In this document: positions 4,667 through 38,119 of the stretch, in pieces
Position numbering within the stretch: position 1 is the stretch's first letter
Layout: each line of letters opens with the position of its first letter
Assembly: GCA_025384855.1 (NCBI GenBank)
Contig: JALAHT010000001.1
Coordinates: 561,064-625,063, forward strand
Direction: 5' to 3'
From: Luteirhabdus salina
GTDB taxonomy: Bacteria > Bacteroidota > Bacteroidia > Flavobacteriales > Flavobacteriaceae
DNA: 64,000 bases
Notes under the pieces: generated by a model
Seen by the model: the letters and a program-made list of their open reading frames with translations, nothing else
What the model was told of the DNA's origin: nothing
Database searches by the model: none
Program-made: the position numbers and the translations under genes

Positions 4667-5579
4667 TAAATTTTGAAACTCCTTTTTTCGGCTCATGGAA
4701 GTTGCTTTCAAAAGCATCATCTTCCTCTTCACCTTCAAACTTATAGCTCAACATTTTGTAATACAGCTTTGCAGCAAGGAAATCGGATGATTTTTCATTT
4801 TCATTTGGGCAAAGCTCCACAATATCGAAGCCTACCACATTTTTTTCGTCAAAAACCTGCTTTAAGAAATCCATGGTTTCATACCAAAACAAACCACCAG
4901 GTTCTGGGGTGCCGGTCGACGGCATAATGGAAGGATCGAAAGCATCCAAATCGAAGGTAATAAATACGTTATCGCCCAGCGCTTCAATTACATTATCCAT
5001 CCAATATTCATCGCCTGCCATTTCGTGTGCCAACCACGTCTTATCTGAATCCATTACGGTCGTTTCGGCAACGTCCATGCTACGTACTCCCACTTGAATT
5101 AAATTCGTGGTCTGACTCGCTTCATACACCGCACAGGCATGATTGCATTTTGAACCTTCATATTCCTTTCGAAGGTCAGCGTGCGCATCGATATGCAACA
5201 CAGTAAGATCGTCGAAGCATTCATTGAAGGCACGGATCGTACCAATTGAAATACTGTGCTCGCCGCCGAAGATGGTGACGAACTTATTCCGAAGGATGTA
5301 TTCTTTTGTCATTTTATGCACTGCTTCTACTACCGCTTCAGGTGAAGCGTTTTCGGTAATCGGTTCTGCAAGGTAGATACCTTGTTTATACACTTCAGTC
5401 TCCGTCTCGATATCGTAGAGTTCCATATTTGCGGAAGCTTCCAAAAAGGCACGCGGTCCTTTGTCGGCTCCTTTCTGCCAAGTACTGGTGCCATCGTACG
5501 GCACTGGGATTAATACAATTTTACTGGTGTCCAGCCCTGCATATTTTTTCGGGATCCCGGCATAGGTCTTAGTTTCCAT
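4644..5579 (-). CDS. speB: Agmatinase (arginase/ureohydrolase family)
   Basis: Arginase-family Mn-binding motifs (GGEHSIS, DAHADL, DLDAFDPS) at canonical spacing. Lies between ADC and the DHS-like gene. Confidence 0.85.
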   Translation of the reverse strand: METKTYAGIPKKYAGLDTSKIVLIPVPYDGTSTWQKGADKGPRAFLEASANMELYDIETETEVYKQGIYLAEPITENASPEAVVEAVHKMTKEYILRNKFVTIFGGEHSISIGTIRAFNECFDDLTVLHIDAHADLRKEYEGSKCNHACAVYEASQTTNLIQVGVRSMDVAETTVMDSDKTWLAHEMAGDEYWMDNVIEALGDNVFITFDLDAFDPSIMPSTGTPEPGGLFWYETMDFLKQVFDEKNVVGFDIVELCPNENEKSSDFLAAKLYYKMLSYKFEGEEEDDAFESNFHEPKKGVSKFNDEKNEY

Positions 5580-6966
5580 ATCCTAAAATATTGAGCAATT
5601 GCTCGCTTGTTTGTTGTTCTGAAAATAATTTGTGGGTAATCTTACCCGAGTCGTCTTTGTCGATTAGCACATGCTTGGGCGACGGAATCAAGCAGTGTTG
5701 CAGTCCACCGAAACCACCAATAGTTTCCTGATAGGCTCCGGTATTGAAAAAGCCAATGTAAAGTGGCTTATCCTTTTTAAATTTTGGTAAATAAATGGCG
5801 TTCATGTGCTGTTCACTATTGTAGTAATCGTCACTATCGCAAGTCAATCCGCCCAGCAACACCCGCTCGTATTCATCGTTCCAGCGATTGATAGCCAACA
5901 TAATAAATCGCTTGCTAATAGCCCAAGTATCGGGTAGTGTGGTGATGAATGAGGAATTGATCATATTCCACTTCTCGCGATCGTTTTGTTGCTTTTGGTA
6001 AAGCACTTCATAAATGGCGCCACCGCTTTCACCTACGGTGAAGCTACCAAACTCGGTGAAGATATTCGGCACATCCACTCCGGCCTCTTTACATGAAACG
6101 TTGATTTGGTTTACGATTTCATCGACCATATAGGTGTAGTCGTATTCAAACGCCAAAGAGTTTTTGATCGGGAAACCACCGCCAATGTTTAGGCTGTCCA
6201 AGGTCGGACAAATCTTTTTGAGTTGAATGTACACCTTTAGACACTTCAATAACTCGTTCCAGTAATAGGCTGTGTCGCGAATGCCCGTATTGATGAAAAA
6301 GTGAAGCATGCGAAGGTTCACCTGATCGTTATTTTCGATTTGCTTTTGGTAAAAAGGCACGATATTACGGTAGCCGATTCCGAGACGGGAGGTATAGAAC
6401 TCAAATTTGGGTTCTTCCTCTGAAGCGATACGGATACCGACTTCAAAGTTTCCATCGATTTCCTCGGAAAGCAAGCCAATCTCTTCATAGTTATCGATAA
6501 TCGGAATGCAATTCTTATGACCGTTATTGATCAGGCGACCAATATTGGTAATGTATTGTTCCCGCTTGAAACCGTTACAGATAACATACGTATCATCGGT
6601 GATCTTTCCTTCTTTCTTTAAGTTCTCAACAATGTTGATATCGAAAGCAGAAGAGGTTTCTATATGGATATCATTTTTTAGGGCTTCATTTAGCACATGC
6701 TTAAAGTGCGAACTCTTGGTACAATAGCAATAGTTGTAGTTGCCTTTGTAATCGTGTTTTTCAATGGCATCGTTAAACCATTTTTTTGCACGGTTGATGT
6801 TATCTGAAATCTTTGGAAGATAGGTGAACTTTAAAGGAGCACCGTATTCCTTCACCAGATCCATCAAATGGATATCATGAAATTCTAGCGTATCATTTTT
6901 TAAGGTGAACTCTTCCTGTGGAAAATAATAGGTCTGATCGATTAGATCTTTGTACTTAATATTCAT
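5569..6966 (-). CDS. Arginine (Orn/Lys/Arg) decarboxylase, fold-type III PLP enzyme (short SpeA-like)
   Basis: YCTKSS (cf. YAVKAN) PLP-Lys region and the NIGGGFPI glycine-rich motif of the ODC/ADC family. First gene of the minus-strand polyamine operon. Confidence 0.75.
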   Translation of the reverse strand: MNIKYKDLIDQTYYFPQEEFTLKNDTLEFHDIHLMDLVKEYGAPLKFTYLPKISDNINRAKKWFNDAIEKHDYKGNYNYCYCTKSSHFKHVLNEALKNDIHIETSSAFDINIVENLKKEGKITDDTYVICNGFKREQYITNIGRLINNGHKNCIPIIDNYEEIGLLSEEIDGNFEVGIRIASEEEPKFEFYTSRLGIGYRNIVPFYQKQIENNDQVNLRMLHFFINTGIRDTAYYWNELLKCLKVYIQLKKICPTLDSLNIGGGFPIKNSLAFEYDYTYMVDEIVNQINVSCKEAGVDVPNIFTEFGSFTVGESGGAIYEVLYQKQQNDREKWNMINSSFITTLPDTWAISKRFIMLAINRWNDEYERVLLGGLTCDSDDYYNSEQHMNAIYLPKFKKDKPLYIGFFNTGAYQETIGGFGGLQHCLIPSPKHVLIDKDDSGKITHKLFSEQQTSEQLLNILGYGN

Positions 6967-7338
6967 TATATGAAATAGGTTGGTAGTTAAAAATAAAAAT
7001 GATTGCAGCTATTCCAATGGAGGAAGCAGCAGTATAACAAAATTTTAACCTGTTTTTCAGATACGGATCGGCTGAAGTCGATAAAGGAAGTAGTATACCT
7101 CGGAAAAATCCTCGAAGAGAAGGGCAAGACCTTGAATACGTCTTGAGAAACCGGAAGCTAGCTTTAAGGTTCGGTGGTCCGCCTTGCGGATTGCTTTTGA
7201 AGATGACTTCCTAACTTTCAAAAGCCCGAACGTAGAAACACATTTCAATTTGTTCAGCTAAAATCTCGGCAAATGTATGCTATTTTTTGAAACGACAATG
7301 TTTTTTGGGAAGAATTTGAATCAATTGAGGAACAAAGC

Positions 7339-7360
7339 TGCAAAGGGGCAAAGGGGCAAA
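7339..7360. repeat. Tandem GCAAAGG-type repeat (gcaaaggggcaaaggggcaaag). Related caaag-rich tracts open the other two islands (about 9055-9100 and 10420-10460).
   Basis: Read directly. Confidence 0.7.
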
Positions 7361-7404
7361 GAATTGAGAATTGAGAATTATTAGGTAATACTAAAATTCT
7401 TGTA

Positions 7405-7520
7405 GCCTACATCTAGAATATACGATTTTAGATTTACGATTGTAATTTTTTGTAATTTCACATCCACCTTCGAGCGAAACCTACAAAGACTATCGACTAC
7501 GGACTAGAGATTATAAATTG
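7405..7520. repeat. About 115-bp conserved intergenic module (copy 1), …gtaatttcacatccaccttcgagcgaaacctacaaagactatcgactacggactagagattataaatt. The paralogous copy lies at 9157-9252.
   Basis: About 80-85% identity by eye between 7405-7520 and 9157-9252. Confidence 0.7.
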
Positions 7521-7530
7521 GGTGTTGGGA

Positions 7531-7586
7531 GTTAGGAGTTAGGAGTTAGGAGTTAGGAGTTAGGAGTTAGGAGTTAGGAGTTAGGA
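7531..7586. repeat. Perfect tandem heptamer array, (GTTAGGA)x8
   Basis: Eight exact consecutive copies read in the sequence, with partial copies on either flank. Confidence 0.95.
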
Positions 7587-7724
7587 GAATAAAGAACATA
7601 GAAAAGAGAAAACTACAGTAGATTGCGCATAAACGATTGAAGATTTCCCGATTTGCAAAGGATTTCTTTTCGTACGATTAACCTTTAACTAATAACTGCA
7701 AAGACTTTTGGGGTGCCGGGTGCT

Positions 7725-7743
7725 GGATGATGGATGATGGATG
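7725..7743. repeat. Short tandem heptamer array, (GGATGAT) x about 2.7
   Basis: ggatgatggatgatggatg. Confidence 0.8.
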
Positions 7744-7746
7744 TAG

Positions 7747-7859
7747 GAAAAGAAATAGTAAAAAGGTTCAAATGTAAAATTTCAAAACCTATCGCTTATA
7801 GCATACAGCTTACTGCTTAAGGCTTATAGAGTACAGCCTACGGCGTACAGCCAACTATT
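7747..7859. repeat. Conserved intergenic module (copy 1): aaagaaatagtaaaaaggttcaaatgtaaaatttcaaaacctatcgcttatagcatacagcttactgcttaagg… followed by a degenerate period-7 nTAnnGC tract. Paralogs lie at 9297-9395 and 10520-10600.
   Basis: Three copies with high identity across about 80 bp, each placed immediately 3' of a tandem heptamer array. Confidence 0.8.
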
Positions 7860-7884
7860 CACGGATCACGGTTCACGGATCACG
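7860..7884. repeat. Tandem heptamer array, (CACGGAT/CACGGTT) x about 3.5
   Basis: cacggatcacggttcacggatcacg. Confidence 0.8.
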
Positions 7885-8068
7885 ACCATAAAGACATTGG
7901 CTTCGACCCTTCGATGCTTCGACTGCGCTCAGCACAGGCTTGCTCAGGGTGACAACTAACAACCAATTTAATCAGCCTCAGCCAACAGTGTTTGTAGTTT
8001 GGAACTTAGAATTTTAGTTAGTAATCGCTTATTGCGTATTGCTTACAGCGTACGGCATAATGCGTCCA

Positions 8069-8935
8069 CTACATCATACTAAACAAATTCACCTCTTCTT
8101 TGGTCAGAATCTTCCAGCGACCACGGGGAAGGTCTTTTTTGGTTAGGTGAGCGATGGTAACACAGTCTACACGTACTACATCATAGTTTAAGTGGTTAAA
8201 AATATCGCGAATAACGCTATTCCCCATGTTCTTGATCTTAAGACCGACTTCTTTTTTGGGTGAATGGTCAACATAGCTAATTTCCTCTACTTCTATTGTT
8301 TTCCCATCGACAGTAAGCCCTTCCTTGATTTTCTGAAGATCATCTGCCTTTAGGTTCTTATCCAATTCGATATGAAACAAACGTGGCATTCCTTTCGAAT
8401 GGAGTTTTTTCATCAAATCGTCATCGTTGGTGAACAGCAGCAATCCAGTAGCGTTCCGACCTAAACGACCGATGGGCTTCACTTTTGCTGAAGTAGCATT
8501 GCTGATAAGGTCCATAACGGTTAACCCTTTATTATCGCTAGTGGTGGTAGCCACGCCTTTCGGCTTGTTCAGCAATACATAAGTATTTGGTTCGGGATTG
8601 ATACGGCGACCATCGAAGCGCACATCGTCTTCCAACTGAACCTTATGGCCCATTTGAGTAACCACTTCACCATTTACGGTTACCAAGCCGGTTTTGATAT
8701 AGGTATCGGCATCGCGACGGGAGCAAATGCCACTGTTCGCAATGTATTTATTTAAGCGAATGCCATCAGGGTTTTTTTGATGGTTGGTCTTCCCCGCTTT
8801 GTTCTGGCGACCCGCTTGCTTATTGGTATTTTCTTTTTTGAAAGGAGCATTTCCTCTTGCACTGCTTCTTTTACGGGTATTGTTTCCCCCACGTCCTGAA
8901 GCCTTTCCTTTTCCTGATCTGTCTTGTCTGCTCAT
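8069..8935 (-). CDS. rluB: 23S rRNA pseudouridine synthase (RluB/RsuA family) with S4 RNA-binding domain and a basic low-complexity N-terminal tail
   Basis: S4 motif (NKYIANSGICSRRDADTYIKTGLVTVNG), RsuA-family catalytic region (…LGRLGRN…) and a Lys/Arg/Gly-rich N-terminus typical of Bacteroidota RluB. Confidence 0.85.
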   Translation of the reverse strand: MSRQDRSGKGKASGRGGNNTRKRSSARGNAPFKKENTNKQAGRQNKAGKTNHQKNPDGIRLNKYIANSGICSRRDADTYIKTGLVTVNGEVVTQMGHKVQLEDDVRFDGRRINPEPNTYVLLNKPKGVATTTSDNKGLTVMDLISNATSAKVKPIGRLGRNATGLLLFTNDDDLMKKLHSKGMPRLFHIELDKNLKADDLQKIKEGLTVDGKTIEVEEISYVDHSPKKEVGLKIKNMGNSVIRDIFNHLNYDVVRVDCVTIAHLTKKDLPRGRWKILTKEEVNLFSMM

Positions 8936-9156
8936 AATATAATGTCAGTTTTACTGACGTTTACTGCCCTGTAATTGGGCGATTTATTGAAATGCAAAGA
9001 TACAGGATAATTGTGCGAATTAAGAATTAAGAATGTGGAATTAAGGAAAGAAACAAAGTTTCAAAGGCGCAAAGACTCAAAAGGTGCAAAAGAGTTAAGA
9101 ATTAAGAGTTAAGAGTCAAGAGTTGTGAGATTTGAGATATGAGAAGTGAGAGTATA

Positions 9157-9252
9157 GAATTTAGATTTAGGATTGTAGCTTTTTGTAATATCACATCGAC
9201 CTTCGAGCGAAACTTCTAAAAACTATCTACTACGTACTAGAGACTATAAATT
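9157..9252. repeat. About 100-bp conserved intergenic module (copy 2). Paralog of 7405-7520.
   Basis: tttgtaatatcacatcgaccttcgagcgaaacttctaaaaactatctactacgtactagagactataaatt matches copy 1. Confidence 0.7.
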
Positions 9253-9268
9253 CCGAGTTAGGAGTTAG

Positions 9269-9296
9269 TGTTGGGTGTTGGGTGTTGGGTGTTGGG
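9269..9296. repeat. Tandem heptamer array, (TGTTGGG)x4, preceded by two GTTAGGA-like units
   Basis: Read directly. Confidence 0.9.
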
Positions 9297-9395
9297 ATAA
9301 AAGAAATAGCAAAAAAATTCTCAAATGTAAAATTTCAAAACCTATCGCTTATGGCATACAGCGTACTGCTTATACCGTACAGCCAACTATTCCCC
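9297..9395. repeat. Conserved intergenic module (copy 2): ataaaagaaatagcaaaaaaattctcaaatgtaaaatttcaaaacctatcgcttatggcatacagcgtactgcttataccgtacagccaactattc
   Basis: Paralogous to 7747-7859 and 10520-10600. Confidence 0.8.
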
Positions 9396-9421
9396 GCCTG
9401 CCTGCCGACTAGGCAGGTTCA

Positions 9422-10384
9422 CTATTCACCATTCGTAAACTTTACAGTCGACTGACGTTCGGTATTAACGACTAGTTGTGTGACATCGGGTCTGGAGTAA
9501 TGGCCGACGGGGTCAAAATTTTGGCGTTCTTCCAATACGCGATCAAAGTCCAGGGTTACGTAGAAGTTCCCAGACTTGTTAAGAATCGGTTCGAGAATCC
9601 ATTCCCCATTTGGACCCGCTACACAGCTTCCGCCGTTGGCAAGCGTTTTTGGAGCGTTCTCAAGGATTTTTTCTAGGTAGGGCGTGTCTTGTGGGAAGTC
9701 TTCTACATTCATCAACGCTGAAACGGAAACAACATAGCTTCTTGATTCCCGAGCGATAAAACGGGTAATTTCTTTAGTGTTATGATCGCTTCCCGGCCAA
9801 ACTGCAACATGCAAGTTTTCACCTTGGGCATAAAGCGAAGCACGTGGTAGCGGCATCCAATTCTCCCAACAATTTAGTCCGCCAACGGTAAAAGGAGGTA
9901 GTTTATGCGTTTGCAGTCCGTTCCCATCGCCGGGTGACCATGTTAGTCGCTCGTCGTAGGTAGGTTGCAATTTACGGTGTACCGATTCGATATTTCCTTC
10001 TTTTGAAATATAGACCAAAGAGGCGTAAATGCTATGCCCTCCCCTATCCTGTGGTCGTTCAATGATGCCAAGGTAGATGGCAATTTCATTTTCTTTCGCC
10101 GCCGCACAAACCTCATCCAAGTCGCCCTCCTCGATACAAACCGCCTGCTTCGCATAGTGCGCATGTAGTTCTTTATTGATGTTGGTATTCCATTCTGCCC
10201 CTCCGGTAAGGGCTAGCCAAAATGGATACCCCGGCACCAAGGCTTCACCAAAAACAATCAGATTGGCATCGTTTTTACCCGCTTCTTCAATCTGTGTAAT
10301 CACTTTTTCCAAGGTCTTTGACCGATTAAGCCAAACAGGAGCTATTTGAGCTAATGCTACGGTAAGTTGAGATGAATTCTTCAT
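9422..10384 (-). CDS. Carbon-nitrogen hydrolase family protein (nitrilase/amidase-like)
   Basis: CN-hydrolase catalytic triad context: FGEALVPGYPFW (Glu), RKLQPTYDER (Lys), GGLNCWENW (Cys). Confidence 0.8.
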   Translation of the reverse strand: MKNSSQLTVALAQIAPVWLNRSKTLEKVITQIEEAGKNDANLIVFGEALVPGYPFWLALTGGAEWNTNINKELHAHYAKQAVCIEEGDLDEVCAAAKENEIAIYLGIIERPQDRGGHSIYASLVYISKEGNIESVHRKLQPTYDERLTWSPGDGNGLQTHKLPPFTVGGLNCWENWMPLPRASLYAQGENLHVAVWPGSDHNTKEITRFIARESRSYVVSVSALMNVEDFPQDTPYLEKILENAPKTLANGGSCVAGPNGEWILEPILNKSGNFYVTLDFDRVLEERQNFDPVGHYSRPDVTQLVVNTERQSTVKFTNGE

Positions 10385-10491
10385 GGTTTAAAGATAGTGA
10401 TAACTTGATAAGAAGCAGCAAAGTTTCAAAGAGACAAAGAGGCAAATGGGCTGCAAAGAGTTAGGAGTTAAAGCTAGAAGCAGATTACAGA

Positions 10492-10519
10492 TGTAGGGTG
10501 TAGGGTGTAGGGTGTAGGG
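10492..10519. repeat. Tandem heptamer array, (TGTAGGG)x4
   Basis: Read directly. Confidence 0.9.
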
Positions 10520-10600
10520 ATAAAAGAAACAGTAAAAAGATTCAAACATAAAATTCCAAAGCCTATTGCTTATAGCGTATAGCTTACAGCTTACTGATCA
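10520..10600. repeat. Conserved intergenic module (copy 3): ataaaagaaacagtaaaaagattcaaacataaaattccaaagcctattgcttatagcgtatagcttacagcttactg
   Basis: Paralogous to 7747-7859 and 9297-9395. Confidence 0.8.
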
Positions 10601-10610
10601 CCGTTCACGC

Positions 10611-11516
10611 CTAAATAAACCGATTCAACAACAGATCGATATCGATTAGTACAATACTGAAGACCCCAGCAACAATGATAAACTTCAAGATGTTATGCAG
10701 CACTACATAGTGAAGTTTTCGTTTTGATTTCCAAAGAATCACCAAAAAAATAATTAATGCCGCGATACTTCCGAAGAAATAATACGTCATATACCCAATT
10801 TCAAAATTGAAGATCAGCAGCAGCGTCGGGATTAAGGTCAATATGCTGAGTAATGTCAACATCCGTTTCGAAACATGTTCACCATACACTACGGGAATGG
10901 TATGGTAGTTCTGTGCCAAATCGCCCTTTAGGTTTTCCAGATCCTTCACGAGTTCACGCATGGCGATCAGTAGAAACAAAAAGGTAGCATGGACAAATAT
11001 TACGATATCGAAATTTCGATAGTAGATAAAGACCGCAAAGAAAGGCACGACTGCCAATGTGCTGGCAACAAAATTCCCTACGAAAGGGTAGCGTTTCAGT
11101 TTATGTGAATAAAACCAAATTCCGAATATATAAAGTGAAAAGAAGATCACCGCCCGAAAGGAAACATAGCTCGCAAAAATCACCGAAATGAAGTTCAGGA
11201 TAAAATAGCCGGAAAGTTTAGTCCGCTGACTCACTAGTCGATCCAACATCGTTTTTCTTGGACGATTAATTAGATCCTTTTCGCTGTCGTAAAAGCTGTT
11301 GATGATGTATCCAGAAGCAATCGCAGCCGAAGATGCCAAAACGATCATAAGAAGATTGACATCAAAAACGACGTGACGCACGGCTAGGTTCGGCGCTAGA
11401 ATATACACCGAGGTGAGATACTGAGCAATAACAATAATGAGAATGTTGTACCCTCGTACAATAGAAAACAAGCTGAAAAACTTCAACAACAGATGCTTTT
11501 GTTTTCGGCTTAGCAT
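10611..11516 (-). CDS. UbiA-family aromatic/polyprenyl prenyltransferase (integral membrane)
   Basis: About 300 aa with about 8 TM helices. Asp-rich loop after TM2 (FYDSEKDLINRPRK) resembling a UbiA NDxxD motif. Sits next to mevalonate-pathway genes. Confidence 0.65.
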   Translation of the reverse strand: MLSRKQKHLLLKFFSLFSIVRGYNILIIVIAQYLTSVYILAPNLAVRHVVFDVNLLMIVLASSAAIASGYIINSFYDSEKDLINRPRKTMLDRLVSQRTKLSGYFILNFISVIFASYVSFRAVIFFSLYIFGIWFYSHKLKRYPFVGNFVASTLAVVPFFAVFIYYRNFDIVIFVHATFLFLLIAMRELVKDLENLKGDLAQNYHTIPVVYGEHVSKRMLTLLSILTLIPTLLLIFNFEIGYMTYYFFGSIAALIIFLVILWKSKRKLHYVVLHNILKFIIVAGVFSIVLIDIDLLLNRFI

Positions 11517-33762: not shown

Positions 33763-34479
33763 TTAGGCGTCTTTACCGTCGTTCATCCCCAATTGTGCCT
33801 TCAATTTATCAAGTTCTTCATCTGCTTTTGCCTCCGATGTATCGGCGGCTTTGTCCAGTTCCTCATCGACCGACTTATTCGCATTTGCGATATCGCCATA
33901 GGCTTCAGCCAGTGCTTCTTCCTGTGCCACCTTTTCCTTCATACGTTCCAGCATAGAAACCGTTCCCGCACTGTCCAACTCTGCCATTTGTTTGTTAAGG
34001 TTCTTGGTAGCATTGCTTACCTTAACGCGTGCCTTCAGCGTTTTAAGTTCGTTTTCCCAGTTGCTGATATTGGCTTTTATGGTTTGAACATTTTTCTGCA
34101 ATTGTGCCACATTATTATCGAATTTCTCAGATTCGTTTTTGGCCTGTTCTGCTTGCTTTTCGGCAGCTTCTTTTTGCATCAAGGCTTCCTTGGCCAAACG
34201 ATCGGCTTCGGCAGCGTCCATTTCCTTATTATGTCCTTTTTTCAGAATGATGATTGCCTTATCCTGATATTCCTGCGCTTTATTTTGATGGTTTTCCTGG
34301 TCGTTTTTAGCCCGAATTGCTAAAGCTTTCACTTTTGCCAATGCCTCAAGGCTTTTTTCAAGATCTAGTTTCATATCGCGGATTCCCTGCTCCGTCATTT
34401 TGATAGGATCTTCCATCTTATCGATGGCTGCATTCGTTTCCGCTTGTCCGATTTTAAAGAGTCGTCTGAAGATATTCAT
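33763..34479 (-). CDS. pspA: PspA/IM30 (Vipp1) family protein
   Basis: N-terminus MNIFRRLFKIGQAETNAAIDKMEDPIKMTEQGIRDMKLDLEKS is the canonical PspA/IM30 start. All-helical coiled coil. Confidence 0.85.
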   Translation of the reverse strand: MNIFRRLFKIGQAETNAAIDKMEDPIKMTEQGIRDMKLDLEKSLEALAKVKALAIRAKNDQENHQNKAQEYQDKAIIILKKGHNKEMDAAEADRLAKEALMQKEAAEKQAEQAKNESEKFDNNVAQLQKNVQTIKANISNWENELKTLKARVKVSNATKNLNKQMAELDSAGTVSMLERMKEKVAQEEALAEAYGDIANANKSVDEELDKAADTSEAKADEELDKLKAQLGMNDGKDA

Positions 34480-34491
34480 AGTACGTCGATT

Positions 34492-34887
34492 TTAATAGTT
34501 AGAAAATTCAATGATTTGTTCGGAATACTCACTTAGCAATAAGCTTAGGGAGTTAAGGCTGCCTTCCAACTCGTTCAAATCCATATTCTCAATTTGAAGG
34601 GTATCGCGGAAAATAACTTTCCTTCCGGTTTCATCAAGCACAAAAGCACCATGAATAATGTCGCGATTCTTCTGCAACAGATTTTGAAACACTTTTTCTG
34701 ACTGGTTGTTAATCGTAAAAATAAATTGCTCTAGGATTAAAATGGGAGGCGCTACTCCCAAAATCAGATTACGTATTCCTGCATTTTCCTTTTGAACTAC
34801 CAAAACACCATCTTCCTTATTTTCATGTGTAATGTTGAAATTCAACTCCAATAGAAAATCTCTTGTGATGGTAAAATGGTTTTTCAT
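34492..34887 (-). CDS. YbjN-like small cytosolic protein
   Basis: About 130 aa. Pattern recalled from YbjN family members that are frequently encoded with PspA. Confidence 0.45.
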   Translation of the reverse strand: MKNHFTITRDFLLELNFNITHENKEDGVLVVQKENAGIRNLILGVAPPILILEQFIFTINNQSEKVFQNLLQKNRDIIHGAFVLDETGRKVIFRDTLQIENMDLNELEGSLNSLSLLLSEYSEQIIEFSNY

Positions 34888-35101
34888 GTTAAAAAAGTTT
34901 TAAAAATGAAACAAGATGTCAATAATACAAAATTATTTTAGCCTTCGCCCGTATTTTTTTTCACACCCTATTAATGATTACAATTAAGTAAACTACCGAA
35001 GCAATAATGCTCAAGAAATTAGCTATACTTAATCTTTTTCGCTAATATTGTTAGTCAAATATATCACTTATTTTTAATATTGCAAATAAAATTAGCAATT
35101 T

Positions 35102-35857
35102 ATGTCAAAATTTGGCAAAAATATCAGAAAAATTAGAAGCGTGAAGACTCTTAGTCAGCAGGCCTTTGCAGAGTTATTCGGGCTCAAGCGCGGTACATTG
35201 GGCGCTTATGAAGAAGGTAGAAGTGAACCGAAAATAGAGACCATTATAAAAATTGCTAATCATTTTAGCATCCCTATCGACGACTTGCTAACGAAGGAAC
35301 TTACCGTCAATAAACTTTTAAAATTTAAAGGCGATTTGGCTATCGAGGATTCTTCCTCACCTACGGAAACCTTTGCAAGAGTACCGTGCATCACACCGAA
35401 GACCAGTGGTGAATATATGCATCGTTATAAAGATAAATCGTTCTTACTACAACTTCCAGCACTTTCGCTTCCTATCAATCCAGAAAAACGCTTCCGAGGA
35501 TATACAGTGGAAAATTTGGAAATGGGCAGCAACGACAAAGGGTTGTTTCCGAAGGATATTGTGATTGGGGAGGTAGTTCCAAAAAATGTCTACAAGAAAT
35601 TAAACAACGGCGTTTTGGTCTTGGTACTAGCAAATAACGCGTTGATTCTACGTCGCTTGTATATTGCGAAGGACATCGCCACCCTTCGTGCCGATCATAA
35701 GAATGTAGAAGAGATGAGCATACCGCTTTCAGATATAGAAGAGCTATGGCGTATTCGATATGTGTTCTATCACCGCTTACCTGATCTAAAAGAAGGATTG
35801 GAGGAAAAACTTCAAAAATTGGAAAAGGAGTTTGCTAAAATTCGCAAAGGGCTATAG
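35102..35857 (+). CDS. XRE-family HTH transcriptional regulator with uncharacterised C-terminal domain
   Basis: N-terminal HTH_XRE (IRKIRSVKTLSQQAFAELFGLKRGTLGAYEEGRSEP). Confidence 0.7.
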   Translation: MSKFGKNIRKIRSVKTLSQQAFAELFGLKRGTLGAYEEGRSEPKIETIIKIANHFSIPIDDLLTKELTVNKLLKFKGDLAIEDSSSPTETFARVPCITPKTSGEYMHRYKDKSFLLQLPALSLPINPEKRFRGYTVENLEMGSNDKGLFPKDIVIGEVVPKNVYKKLNNGVLVLVLANNALILRRLYIAKDIATLRADHKNVEEMSIPLSDIEELWRIRYVFYHRLPDLKEGLEEKLQKLEKEFAKIRKGL

Positions 35858-36046
35858 AATAGCCTATGACATTAAATCTTCTGCATTTTTAGGTAGCAAT
35901 GGGGAAATGTTGGGAAAGCATCTTACACTTTCGGTATTTAGACAAGGCACCTTTCTAAAAGCACACTTTACAGAAGCGGTGGCAGGCTGTGATTGGACGA
36001 AGGTTACGGATCCAATTCGGATATATGCTAATCAAACCTCAATTAA

Positions 36047-36075
36047 TTCAAAAAGCCTCTCAAAAAGAGAGGCTT
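36047..36075 (+). terminator. Intrinsic terminator: perfect 9-bp stem (aagcctctc / gagaggctt) with AAAAA loop, then TTTACTT
   Basis: Read directly. Lies between the XRE gene and the tRNA fragment and could act bidirectionally. Confidence 0.75.
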
Positions 36076-36081
36076 TACTTG

Positions 36082-36140
36082 TGCGGCTGAAGGGAGTCGA
36101 ACCCCCACGCCTTGCGGCACTAGATCCTAAGTCTAGCGTA
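36082..36140 (-). other. Partial tRNA-Leu(TAG): 3' fragment (anticodon arm, long variable arm, T-arm, 3' acceptor strand) with no 5' acceptor or D-arm. Interpreted as an att-site remnant at the left end of an integrated element.
   Basis: Minus-strand reading: CTAGA-CTTAGGA-TCTAG (anticodon loop with UAG), GCCGCAAGGC variable stem-loop, GGGGG-TTCGACT-CCCTT T-arm, CAGCCGC 3' acceptor plus discriminator A. The complementary 5' acceptor GCGGCTG is absent downstream. Confidence 0.6.
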
Positions 36141-36235
36141 CATTTGCCTAAATAACACCAAAGTCACTCATTTTCAATTGATTATAAAAAACATCATTTT
36201 CTTTGATATCATCTAATATCAATTGATTTCAGCAT

Positions 36236-36341
36236 TTGTTGTACCTATGTTGTACCTAAAAAGTCTAATAAATTTGTATCTTTATCGAAAGTTTACAACA
36301 AAAATTAAGCTCAAAATACAATGTTGTACCTATGTTGTACC
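36236..36341 (+). promoter_or_regulatory. Two copies of the 21-bp direct repeat tgttgtacctatgttgtacct (four TGTTGTACCT units), 85 bp apart, upstream of the integrase. Candidate arm-type recombinase/regulator binding sites.
   Basis: Exact repeats at 36236-36256 and 36321-36341. Confidence 0.55.
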
Positions 36342-36374
36342 TGATTTGACTTTCGTACTCAAAACAGGTCAATT

Positions 36375-37589
36375 ATGTCGTCAAATGCAAAAATAGTACT
36401 ACGCAAAAAACCGAACAGTAAAGGTCTATATCCACTAGCTATTCGTATCACAAAAAATCGTCGCTCAACATACCAATATATTGGTCATTATATCGACTTA
36501 GAGGATTGGGACGAAAAAAACATTCGAGTAAAAAAATCAAATCAAAACGCAGAAAGTTTAAACAAGTTGTTATCACAAGAACTTTCTGATGCCAATAAAG
36601 CACTTATTGATTTGCAATCAGAACACAAAGATGCTTCTGCAAACCAAATCAAAAAAGAGCTATACGCATTGGGTAATACTTCTACCTTTTTTGAACTTGC
36701 CCAAGAGCATCTCAATGAATTGAAAGCTGCTGAAAAATTAAACCGCCTATCCACAGATAGTGCTTTGGTAACTTATATCTTAAAATTCAATAAATCCAAA
36801 CAACTTTCCTTTCAGGAAATCGACGAGCGTTTCCTGAAGAAATTGATGATATATCTAAAAGTTGAACATTCTCTAGCTGAAACGTCAATAATGAATATAC
36901 TGGTATTTATCCGCTTATTGTTCAATAGGGCAATAAAGCTTAAAATTGTTAGTAGGGAATTGTACCCTTTTGGTGGTGATAAGATTAAAATTAAATTTCC
37001 GGAAACAAATAAAATTGGGTTGAATATTATTGAAGTAAGAGCTATAGAGGCTCTTGATAATTTAACGTTAGCTGAAATGCACACAAGAAACGTTTGGCTT
37101 TTCAGCTTCAATTTTGCAGGAATGCGAGTTACTGATGTACTATGGACAAAGTGGTCCGATATTTATGACGGCAGACTACATTATAGAATGAATAAAAACT
37201 CGAAATTATTATCATTGAAAATACCAGATAAAGTTTTTAAAATTTTAGACTACTACAGGGACGACAAGAGATACCCAACGGATTTTGTTTTCCCTGAATT
37301 GAAAAAAGCGAATCTCGATGACGCTAAAGACATCTATAACAAAAGAAAGACAGCTACCAAAAAATTTAATGATAATCTAAAGTCTATTGCTAAAAAGGCA
37401 AAAATAGATAAGAAGGTTACTATGCACATTGCGAGGCATACTTTTGGTAACATCGCTGGTGATACCATTCACCCCTTAATGCTTCAGAAGCTATACCGCC
37501 ATAGCGATTTAAAGACAACATTAAATTATCAAGCTAATTTTATACATAAAGAAGCTGATGATGCCTTGGAAAGCGTAGTAAATTTCTGA
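36375..37589 (+). CDS. int: Tyrosine-type site-specific integrase (phage integrase family)
   Basis: C-terminal catalytic region with R…HxxR…Y (…MHIARHTFGNIAGD…LYRHSDLKTTLNYQANF). N-terminal SAM-like/core-binding domain. Confidence 0.85.
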   Translation: MSSNAKIVLRKKPNSKGLYPLAIRITKNRRSTYQYIGHYIDLEDWDEKNIRVKKSNQNAESLNKLLSQELSDANKALIDLQSEHKDASANQIKKELYALGNTSTFFELAQEHLNELKAAEKLNRLSTDSALVTYILKFNKSKQLSFQEIDERFLKKLMIYLKVEHSLAETSIMNILVFIRLLFNRAIKLKIVSRELYPFGGDKIKIKFPETNKIGLNIIEVRAIEALDNLTLAEMHTRNVWLFSFNFAGMRVTDVLWTKWSDIYDGRLHYRMNKNSKLLSLKIPDKVFKILDYYRDDKRYPTDFVFPELKKANLDDAKDIYNKRKTATKKFNDNLKSIAKKAKIDKKVTMHIARHTFGNIAGDTIHPLMLQKLYRHSDLKTTLNYQANFIHKEADDALESVVNF

Positions 37590-37699
37590 AAAAAATATTA
37601 AAACAAAATTTAGATAGCTTAAGTTCTATTCTTCTGAGCAAAATTAAAATTCTGTTAATCACGATAAAAAATGTTAAATTTTTGTAATTTTGCATTTAA

Positions 37700-38119
37700 A
37701 TGAATCAATATATTCACAAATCAATGGCGGTTTTTATGGCAGCTGTAGTCTTTATGACTACGATGTCATTTACTATTGATATGCATTACTGTGGAGATTC
37801 TTTGGTAGATTTTTCATTCGTTCAGAAAGCGAAAACTTGCGGGATGGAAAAAGCTCAGGCTACTACAAGTTGTGAGAACCCAACCCTTTCAGAAAAAACG
37901 TGTTGTACGGATAAGCAAGTCGTTAAAGAAGGAAAGGATGATTTAAAAGTTTCATTTGACCAACTTACCTTAGAGCAACAAGTCTTTGTTGCCTCATTTA
38001 CATATTCGTATTTAAGTCTTTTTGAAGGAATTGAATCTAACGATGTTCCTTTCATCGATTACCCGCCCCCCTTTGTCAAACGGGATGTGCAAGTGCTGCA
38101 CCAGACTTTTTTAATTTGA
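37700..38119 (+). CDS. Hypothetical secreted Cys-containing protein
   Basis: Signal-peptide-like N-terminus and several Cys (CGDS, CGMEK, CEN, CC). Confidence 0.45.
   Translation: MNQYIHKSMAVFMAAVVFMTTMSFTIDMHYCGDSLVDFSFVQKAKTCGMEKAQATTSCENPTLSEKTCCTDKQVVKEGKDDLKVSFDQLTLEQQVFVASFTYSYLSLFEGIESNDVPFIDYPPPFVKRDVQVLHQTFLI

Follow-up and report, generated by a model that had tools for sequence, protein, structure and literature searches.

Gene setting

The window analysed here is a 64,000-nucleotide (nt) stretch of the Luteirhabdus salina genome (assembly GCA_025384855.1, contig JALAHT010000001.1, positions 561,064 to 625,063 of the forward strand), a member of the Flavobacteriaceae close to Luteirhabdus pelagi (its RluB-like protein is 99% identical to that of L. 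pelagi). It carries three neighbouring intergenic islands, numbered 1 to 3 by increasing coordinate, which are made up of tandem 7-nt units (heptamers) and of blocks that recur from island to island; their structure, turnover and possible roles are the subject of this work. The islands lie in the spacers between four co-directional housekeeping genes, all on the minus strand, listed here in the order of their transcription:

10611–11516, minus strand: UbiA-type prenyltransferase gene, transcribed first
9422–10384, minus strand: nitrilase-family gene, second
8069–8935, minus strand: RluB/F-type pseudouridine synthase (rluB-like) gene, third
5569–6966, minus strand: arginine decarboxylase gene speA, fourth, followed by the agmatinase gene

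The gaps that hold islands 1, 2 and 3 (6967–8068, 8936–9421 and 10385–10610) measure 1102, 486 and 226 bp and are among the longest of the 51 gaps defined by open reading frames (ORFs) in the window, so that the unusual length ascribed to them in a first-pass annotation, made by reading the sequence alone, is borne out. Exact look-ups with the RluB-like and nitrilase-family proteins of the window gave no match on record.

Architecture of the islands

Tandem Repeats Finder detected ten period-7 arrays within positions 7360–10594, all of them composed of head-to-tail 7-nt units, located outside coding regions and confined to the three gaps. Each gap has a characteristic array of its own (GTTAGGA, TGTTGGG and TGTAGGG in islands 1, 2 and 3, respectively), and further period-7 repeats occur inside the islands (TGGATGA, TCACGGA, GCnTAnn tracts and others). 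In addition, the gaps have longer blocks in common. These are a caaag tract with a period of 8, not 7, of which there is one copy per gap; module A, found in islands 1 and 2 (86% identity between the two copies); and module B, present in all three islands (82–93% identity among copies). Alignments and repeat searches found all copies of these blocks (three, two and three, respectively) in one orientation. The components are as follows:

Island 1
7344–8078, plus strand: period-7 domain between the rluB-like stop codon (8069) and the speA promoter, interrupted only by a non-periodic part at ~7885–7975
7327–7363, plus strand: caaag tract, period 8 (GCAAAGGG), reading CTTTG on the gene-sense strand
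7360–7379: (AGAATTG) array (Tandem Repeats Finder)
7424–7518, plus strand: module A, copy 1 (A1), with decayed heptamers, e.g. CTATCGA CTACGGA CTAGAGA TTATAAA at its end
7524–7587, plus strand: (GTTAGGA) array, 9.1 copies at 98% by Tandem Repeats Finder, 8.6 perfect copies
7588–7714, plus strand: module C, single-copy in the window
7724–7743, plus strand: (TGGATGA) array, 2.9 copies, directly before module B1
7748–7819, plus strand: module B, copy 1 (B1), with a −7 box (TACATTTG) at 7769–7776 on the minus strand, pointing towards speA
7794–7884, plus strand: degenerate GCnTAnn heptamer tract, then 3.7 copies of TCACGGA at 7859–7884
8024–8068, plus strand: second degenerate GCnTAnn tract, abutting the rluB-like stop codon

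Island 2
9017–9392, plus strand: repeat domain
9017–9045: (GAATTAA) array
9048–9084: caaag tract
9090–9151: (AAGAGTT)/(GAGATGT) arrays, including the (AAGAGTT) array at 9090–9124 (Tandem Repeats Finder)
9157–9251: module A, copy 2 (A2)
9255–9296: GAGTTAG, two units, plus (TGTTGGG), four units; Tandem Repeats Finder reports a (GTGTTGG/TGTTGGG) array at 9268–9296, 4.1 copies, 100%
9299–9372: module B, copy 2 (B2), with a −7 box (TACATTTG) at 9322–9329 on the minus strand
9347–9392: GCnTAnn tract

Island 3
10413–10610, plus strand: repeat domain
10413–10449: caaag tract, then a GAGTTAGGAGTTA remnant
10492–10519: (TGTAGGG) array, 4.0 copies, 100% (Tandem Repeats Finder)
10522–10593: module B, copy 3 (B3), with a −7 box (TATGTTTG) at 10543–10550 on the minus strand
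10561–10606: GCnTAnn tract, including a (GCTTACA) array at 10568–10594 (Tandem Repeats Finder)

This inventory agrees with most of the first-pass annotation, which had described a family of composite repeats with a distinct heptamer array in each gap, additional period-7 repeats, an upstream module of ~100 bp shared by islands 1 and 2 (module A) and no array inside an ORF. Two of its statements have to be qualified. An array leads directly into the shared module in islands 2 and 3, but in island 1 it is block C that follows the GTTAGGA array, and B1 follows (TGGATGA)3. The repeats themselves are real but do not take up the whole of the gaps, as had been assumed: positions 6967–7299 represent the conserved speA promoter and leader, which are kept in relatives that have no repeats.

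Island 1 of the window also has a ~70-nt non-periodic GC-rich insert (gcttcgacccttcgatgcttcgactgcgctcagcacaggcttgctcagggtgac) at ~7900–7965, where L. pelagi has ggcttcgagagcctcagcc alone.

Modules as period-7 DNA

The modules had initially been taken for conserved unique sequence, a view that does not survive an analysis of their periodicity, which was measured as lag-7 identity in 84-nt segments (cut-off of at least 0.5), with a sliding profile and a print-out in rows of seven. Lag-7 identity is 0.49 in module A, 0.50 in module B and 0.39 in module C, compared with ~0.27 at other lags or in other intergenic regions, and lags 14 and 21 are raised in the modules as well. All 96 segments of the 64-kb window that reach the cut-off lie within 7344–8078, 9045–9387 and 10431–10626; other lags almost never attain 0.5 anywhere in the window, and the period-7 signal is far above chance. 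At the L. pelagi locus, too, every segment with a lag-7 identity of at least 0.5 falls inside its three islands.

The modules also keep the register of the arrays: across the boundaries between arrays and modules, the G signal stays in one phase throughout 9017–9300 and 7327–7740. When island 2 is written in rows of seven, the G-first register runs without a break from 9094 to 9190, i.e. from the perfect arrays into module A, and module B continues into CnTAnnG units. In this common register, the units can be arranged in a one-step mutational series (AGGAGTT, AAGAGTT, AAGAATT, GAGAATT, GGGTGTT, GGGTGTA, GGATGAT and GGATCAC); adjacent units differ by one or two substitutions, and islands in metagenomes show a similar pattern. 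Therefore, each island is one long heptamer array that includes both young, perfect stretches and old, decayed ones.

Phylogenetic distribution

Blastn searches with every block against the 64-kb window and 21 kb of related loci found no copies outside the three gaps, and the same 64 kb and 21 kb contain no period-7 DNA elsewhere. A degenerate 27-mer from module B, which matches all three copies in the window and those in two of the three L. pelagi islands, had a single match among 185,579 species genomes, namely the same locus of L. pelagi, and zero matches in metagenome contigs (JGI). A dispersed repeat family, as envisaged in the first-pass annotation, is not what these searches recovered. 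That annotation had itself reasoned that modules occurring nowhere else in the genome would suggest a local duplication only, and for module B no copy was found elsewhere.

Six relatives share this gene order and have short gaps (8–124 nt), no islands and no period-7 signal. These are a relative with 84% identity (L002–L004), Altibacter (L006), two uncultured bacteria (L007 and L129), Ulvibacter (L132), which also carries the nitrilase gene, and Marinirhabdus (L135). Aequorivita sinensis, which keeps only the rluB–speA pair, has no islands either. The absence of islands from the syntenic gaps of the six relatives indicates that they probably expanded in the Luteirhabdus lineage, apparently through local duplication and not as members of a dispersed family. 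A check for target-site duplications found the empty sites of L002, the nearest island-free relative, too diverged for defining borders.

Two further explanations were considered and rejected: integron-like cassettes, because the housekeeping genes that separate the islands are also found, in synteny, in the island-free relatives, and an assembly artefact, because the architecture is common to two independent assemblies.

Tests for a mobile element or a structured RNA

Composite, modular, mutually similar intergenic copies in a single orientation are what a dispersed mobile family of the REP/BIME or MITE type would offer, and the first-pass annotation had proposed such a family, possibly specifying a small RNA or a structured terminator. 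The resemblance consists in short non-coding intergenic repeats with a modular look; the palindromic units, terminal inverted repeats and dispersal of REP/BIME and MITE elements are absent here. There were no inverted repeats in islands 2 and 3, only short ones (12–21 nt) in island 1, no palindromic units and no terminal inverted repeats in any island. The minimum free energies of seven segments, calculated for both strands, did not differ significantly from those of shuffled sequences (z from −1.65 to +1.4), and consensus folds of modules A and B on either strand were weak and showed almost no covariation, which had been named as the check for a conserved RNA fold. Rfam gave no match, either for the whole window at the gathering score or for positions 6900–10700 at E-values up to 1. 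Together with the confinement of all copies found to three adjacent gaps and the finding that the modules consist of heptamer DNA sharing the register of the arrays, these results have largely refuted a mobile family, which we now regard as highly improbable. The islands appear to be neither a mobile element nor an RNA gene.

Turnover of the islands between two Luteirhabdus genomes

The same three islands are found in L. pelagi (L001), with gaps of 1192, 892 and 388 bp versus 1102, 486 and 226 bp in the window. This comparison involves two genomes, whose flanking genes are 92–96% identical at the nucleotide level and 80% identical at 4-fold degenerate sites (69–87% per gene). Copy numbers differ between them in 7-nt steps: the GTTAGGA array of island 1 has 8.6 copies in the window and 6.1 in L. 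pelagi, and the CACCGTT-type tail has one unit in the former and three in the latter. Island 2 of L. pelagi contains an additional, new GTTAGGA array of 6.6 copies, the (TGTTGGG)4 array of window island 2 is missing at the corresponding module-B junction, a mixed 7/8-nt array stands in place of the (TGTAGGG)4 of window island 3, and the units GAGCCAA, GAGTTAT, GGAGGCT and TCACCGT are new in L. pelagi. The perfect arrays had been pointed out as substrates for slipped-strand mispairing, with a comparison of heptamer counts as the proposed check. In the two genomes compared, the counts are indeed not invariant, and both the number and the sequence of units differ at the same sites.

Whole blocks have changed places as well. 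Module C, present in island 1 of the window, occurs in approximately three copies in island 2 of L. pelagi (91%, 80% and 75% matches), and the variant of module A with CTTCTAAAAA is found in island 2 of the window and in island 3 of L. pelagi. Within the window, copies B1 and B2 share 93% identity but are each only 75–76% identical to the module B of L. pelagi island 2; B3 and its positional orthologue in L. pelagi share 95.8% identity. Slippage, together with gene conversion among adjacent direct repeats or their differential loss, would be expected to produce such a distribution of blocks.

Some differences between the two loci are of another kind. The arrays in islands 1 and 2 of L. pelagi contain five GC-rich palindromic hairpins of ~55 nt (cccgcccgtaccgaacgc...gttcgggcggg), all in one orientation (L001 11490–11434, 11423–11368, 9620–9564, 9811–9757 and 9348–9294); there are none in the window. 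This palindrome could represent a small hairpin element for which the arrays are either a target or a permissive site, and its G runs complete G-quadruplex motifs in L. pelagi. Furthermore, two additional genes, whose products have type-IX-secretion C-terminal domains, are inserted among the mevalonate-pathway genes of L. pelagi (L001 1700–3181 and 4325–6808) and are missing from the window; therefore, the neighbourhood differs in gene content besides the islands.

Origin and evolution of the islands

In our view, at a rough probability of 60%, the islands represent local, lineage-specific heptanucleotide simple-sequence DNA that has been shaped by slippage, decay and exchange between islands, and they are best read as tolerated spacer DNA of the type that has been described from other Flavobacteriaceae as heptamer assemblages. 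The anatomy of the islands suggests that arrays of 7-nt units would gain and lose length in steps of 7 nt through replication slippage, that point mutations would create variant units (AGGAGTT, AAGAGTT, AAGAATT, GAGAATT, GGGTGTT, GGGTGTA, GGATGAT and others), to be re-amplified beside the parent array, and that older arrays would decay into the seemingly unique modules A, B and C. From the comparisons within and between the two genomes, it appears that a composite of ~350 bp (caaag tract, AT-rich heptamers, module A, G-rich array, module B and GCnTAnn tract, in this order) was copied among the three adjacent spacers and may still be exchanged or differentially lost, probably through ectopic recombination or gene conversion between islands that lie 1.2–1.7 kb apart.

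Several observations weigh against this reading. Slippage and exchange do not explain how the ~350-bp composite first entered three non-homologous spacers. The orthologous island segments that have been retained in both genomes are 87.6%, 92.3% and 93.7% identical (the last value is also that of the second GCnTAnn tract, 8024–8068), versus 80% at 4-fold degenerate sites, a difference that may reflect constraint or else recent recombination between the two lineages. In nearly all units, G exceeds C on the same (plus) strand, a polarity that would not be expected from slippage alone. Four of the five copies of the −7 box in module B differ from one another at nothing but the two free positions. 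Finally, the genome-wide scan covered module B, while modules A and C were covered in 85 kb only.

Promoter boxes, G-quadruplex motifs and possible function

In flavobacteria, the sigma-A box TAnnTTTG spans positions −12 to −5 of transcription start sites (PMC9723704). In the window, 18 of the 51 occurrences of this motif are found in the 10.6% of the sequence that is intergenic, mostly directly upstream of gene starts. Positions 6900–10700 have five on the minus strand and none on the plus strand, three of them in the copies of module B and two native. The native boxes and box-like sequences of the three genes downstream of islands are as follows:

7270–7277, minus strand: speA −7 box (TACATTTG), bounding the island and not part of a repeat; conserved in seven of eight aligned genomes, Ulvibacter having TTCTTTTG
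8995–9002, minus strand: rluB-like −7 box (TATCTTTG); island 2 begins 15 nt upstream of it; conserved in the island-free L002
10389–10396, minus strand: nitrilase −7-like box (TATCTTTA), 4 nt before the ATG; conserved in the island-free L002

The repeats end ~15–50 nt upstream of these boxes, so each island occupies the space that separates the stop codon of one gene from the native core promoter of the co-directional gene that follows it. The perfect arrays lie upstream of the native −7 boxes and not between promoter elements, and would be part of a 5′ untranslated region only if the box of module B were active. A scan for sigma-70 promoters and intrinsic terminators, which is ill-suited to the promoters of Bacteroidetes, gave counts at the level of shuffled sequences. 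The position of the nitrilase box at −12 to −5 predicts a transcript that starts at the A of the start codon, i.e. a leaderless mRNA.

The plus strand of the islands is rich in purines and in G (G 22–25%, C 12–14%), opposite to the local GC skew. Motif prediction identified two canonical G-quadruplex motifs on both strands of the 64-kb window, and these coincide with the two four-unit arrays:

9273–9296, plus strand: canonical G-quadruplex motif (GGGTGTTGGGTGTTGGGTGTTGGG), on the template strand of the flanking genes
10496–10519, plus strand: canonical G-quadruplex motif (GGGTGTAGGGTGTAGGGTGTAGGG), the four-unit array of island 3

Island 1 has GG-type units only. In L001, canonical motifs are confined to the three islands; L002 lacks them. 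The G-rich arrays would put a quadruplex-capable tract on the template strand, and the TAnnTTTG of module B, which is in the sense orientation, may add an upstream start that would yield a long, pyrimidine-rich and unstructured leader.

Such features could make an island a selected regulatory cassette, a portable promoter and insulator. Module B would then provide the downstream gene with an additional sigma-A promoter, and the CTTTG tract would bring −33-like TTTG elements close to the native promoter; a template-strand quadruplex formed by the four-unit array would block read-through or tune transcription, and the number of heptamers would tune the length or structure of the leader. Several of the observations above would fit such a cassette. 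Each module-B box points at the downstream gene and, where it is kept, varies only at nn (TACATTTG, TATGTTTG and, in L. pelagi, TATATTTG), TAnnTTTG is limited to the minus strand of the locus and, where it is intergenic, mostly lies directly upstream of gene starts in the window, the only canonical quadruplex motifs of the window and of L001 are island arrays (in the window, of exactly four units each), and other heptamers have been reported to favour four units and gaps flanked by aligned ORFs (Rehm et al., 2015; PMC4692102). The conservation of the retained segments above that of 4-fold degenerate sites and the uniform strand polarity point in the same direction. However, there is no canonical −33 TTTG 19–21 nt upstream of the module-B box, the box is no longer present in one of the five B copies (that of L. 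pelagi island 2), and the implied leaders of 154, 382 and 798 nt compare with a median of 24 nt (mean 65 nt) in Flavobacterium psychrophilum (PMC9723704). The arrays lie 92–333 nt from the nearest start or stop codon and not within 50 nt as in the repeats of Rehm et al., island 1 has no GGG-type units, and the six relatives express the same genes from short, island-free gaps. We therefore consider a selected cassette possible, though unlikely.

A more speculative variant would be a self-propagating period-7 cassette of ~350 bp under selection, which would spread into adjacent spacers together with its sigma-A box and four-run quadruplex tract, insulating or re-driving the genes, with a tunable number of heptamers. 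It would fit the conservation of the retained segments, the single strand polarity and the long-range phase coherence, and we hold it to be distinctly unlikely.

The composition of the islands might instead suit a Rho-dependent terminator or insulator, in which the untranslated, unstructured sense RNA, with more C than G and regularly spaced YC dinucleotides, would provide rut-like sites at which transcription of the upstream gene stops ahead of the next promoter. The C/G ratio of the sense RNA is ~1.7–1.9 over hundreds of nt, and this RNA folds no better, and often worse, than shuffled sequences (z from +0.3 to +1.4 in four of six minus-strand island segments). No intrinsic terminator follows the stop codons of the upstream genes, the sole minus-strand match in an island being located directly before the rluB start. 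Against this, the absolute C content is only ~22–25%, and the relatives manage with gaps of 8–124 nt. The case for Rho draws on base composition, and we judge Rho-dependent termination at the islands very unlikely.

The speA leader and the GC-skew switch

The leader of speA (7145–7268, minus strand) contains a conserved five-helix RNA structure, beginning ~10 nt beyond the −7 box of this gene. In an alignment of eight genomes (the window, L. pelagi, L002, Altibacter, L007, L129, Ulvibacter and Marinirhabdus), 98.4% of the cells are paired and eight pairs have compensatory changes. None of 500 shuffles attained the observed values on four of the five measures (71 of 500 did so for further pair types), and control folds slid along the alignment were 27–51% paired. 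The structure is absent in A. sinensis, had no Rfam match at E-values up to 1, and a single literature search yielded no description of it. This leader is a candidate cis-regulatory RNA of the arginine decarboxylase/agmatinase (polyamine) operon.

The cumulative GC skew of the window has its minimum at ~34000–38000 (switch at ~36 kb), in a region of low GC content (33–38%) where gene orientation changes from minus to plus. We rejected oriC as an explanation, as sites resembling DnaA boxes are not clustered there; gene orientation is the more probable cause of the switch.

Heptamer arrays in metagenomes

Three tandem copies of GTTAGGA were found in more than 120 metagenome contigs with GC contents ranging from 30% to 67%, one of them clearly cyanobacterial, and another pairs GTTAGGA with ATTAAGA, as does the window. 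All (GTTAGGA)n arrays whose position could be classified (contigs L009–L128, with crude ORF calls) are intergenic. Many contigs have several arrays with units one or two substitutions apart, and in some (e.g. L111 and L118) most intergenic regions contain an array. When the islands were compared by blastn with 120 contigs carrying (GTTAGGA)3, only arrays matched arrays, and there was no homology to the modules. There is no strand bias relative to the flanking genes (29 sense versus 25 antisense), so the antisense orientation of the array in the window does not hold generally. For 46 of 72 arrays, the nearer ORF was the one on the 5′ side of the G-rich strand, often with 0–30 nt between the array and a stop codon.

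The recurrence of GTTAGGA and its one-step variants in these unrelated contigs, always between genes, might suggest a binding array for a protein that reads the 7-nt register on DNA or RNA, as was raised for other heptamers by MacGregor (2015; PMC4679880). In the window, the consistent polarity of the units (GGA or GGG on the plus strand, CU-rich on the minus strand) and the phase coherence over 280–410 nt would be in line with it. However, slippage in 7-nt steps also yields phase coherence, the units vary so widely within and between islands that no single motif emerges, no candidate protein was found and the strand bias relative to genes is missing from the metagenomes. It appears highly improbable that the islands are such arrays.

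Implications

With three islands 1–2 kb apart, six island-free relatives and a second genome in which the islands are rearranged, this locus represents a compact natural experiment. It shows that modules of unique appearance can be decayed arrays, that arrays become diverse when variant units are amplified, and that blocks change places among adjacent spacers. An active promoter in module B, or folding of the four-unit arrays into quadruplexes in vivo, would make the locus a testable case for a function of such repeats in Bacteroidetes; otherwise, it is a well-documented case of spacer DNA that is tolerated and evolves fast. Annotators should note that the rluB-like and nitrilase genes are flanked by direct repeats, which are substrates for deletion.

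Comparison with known heptamer repeats

Cyanobacterial heptamers of the STRR type are said to have been described by Mazel et al. in 1990. In bacteria at large, according to Mrazek et al. (2007), heptamers form the commonest class of long simple-sequence repeats, for which polymerase slippage was proposed. The islands resemble the long simple-sequence repeats with units of 5–11 nt covered there, and those of the STRR type, in having tandem 7-nt units outside genes, several unit families and changes in 7-nt steps. Such repeats are genome-wide, with tens to hundreds of sets, whereas all the period-7 DNA of the 64-kb window is concentrated in three adjacent gaps.

In Haemophilus influenzae, the phase-variable (ATCTTTC)n repeat of hmw1A pairs with a G-rich arm to form a hairpin that is cleaved by RNase III and controls the adhesin (PMC12721329). 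The islands share with it a heptamer repeat upstream of a gene, possibly transcribed in the leader, but have no complementary arm or hairpin, and the genes concerned are housekeeping genes.

There are also similarities to the quadruplex-forming heptamers GGGNATC and GGGGA(C/T)T of Xanthomonas and Nostoc (Rehm et al., 2015; PMC4692102). Like these, the islands have one G3 run per unit and exactly four units in two arrays, lie between co-directional ORFs and vary in length and sequence between related genomes at conserved positions; the 5′-side proximity of the GTTAGGA arrays in metagenomes echoes these repeats, too. The repeats of Rehm et al. have other unit sequences and are found within 50 bp of ORFs, whereas the predicted quadruplex arrays described here are more distant and embedded in larger islands.

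The nearest counterparts are the long intergenic regions with mixed heptamers that MacGregor (2015; PMC4679880) described in Gramella forsetii KT0803, Aequorivita sublithincola DSM 14238 and Elizabethkingia anophelis, for whose TAACTGA repeats binders of the S1, Csp or CsrA type were proposed. TAACTGA is absent from the islands, and the shared decayed modules, the three adjacent islands, the phase coherence and the exchange between islands are not part of that description. What the two have in common is their occurrence in Flavobacteriaceae, the presence of several heptamer direct repeats per long gap, near-identical repeat-bearing intergenic regions (found twice in Elizabethkingia) and close relatives with a similar gene neighbourhood in which the same gaps are short and free of repeats.

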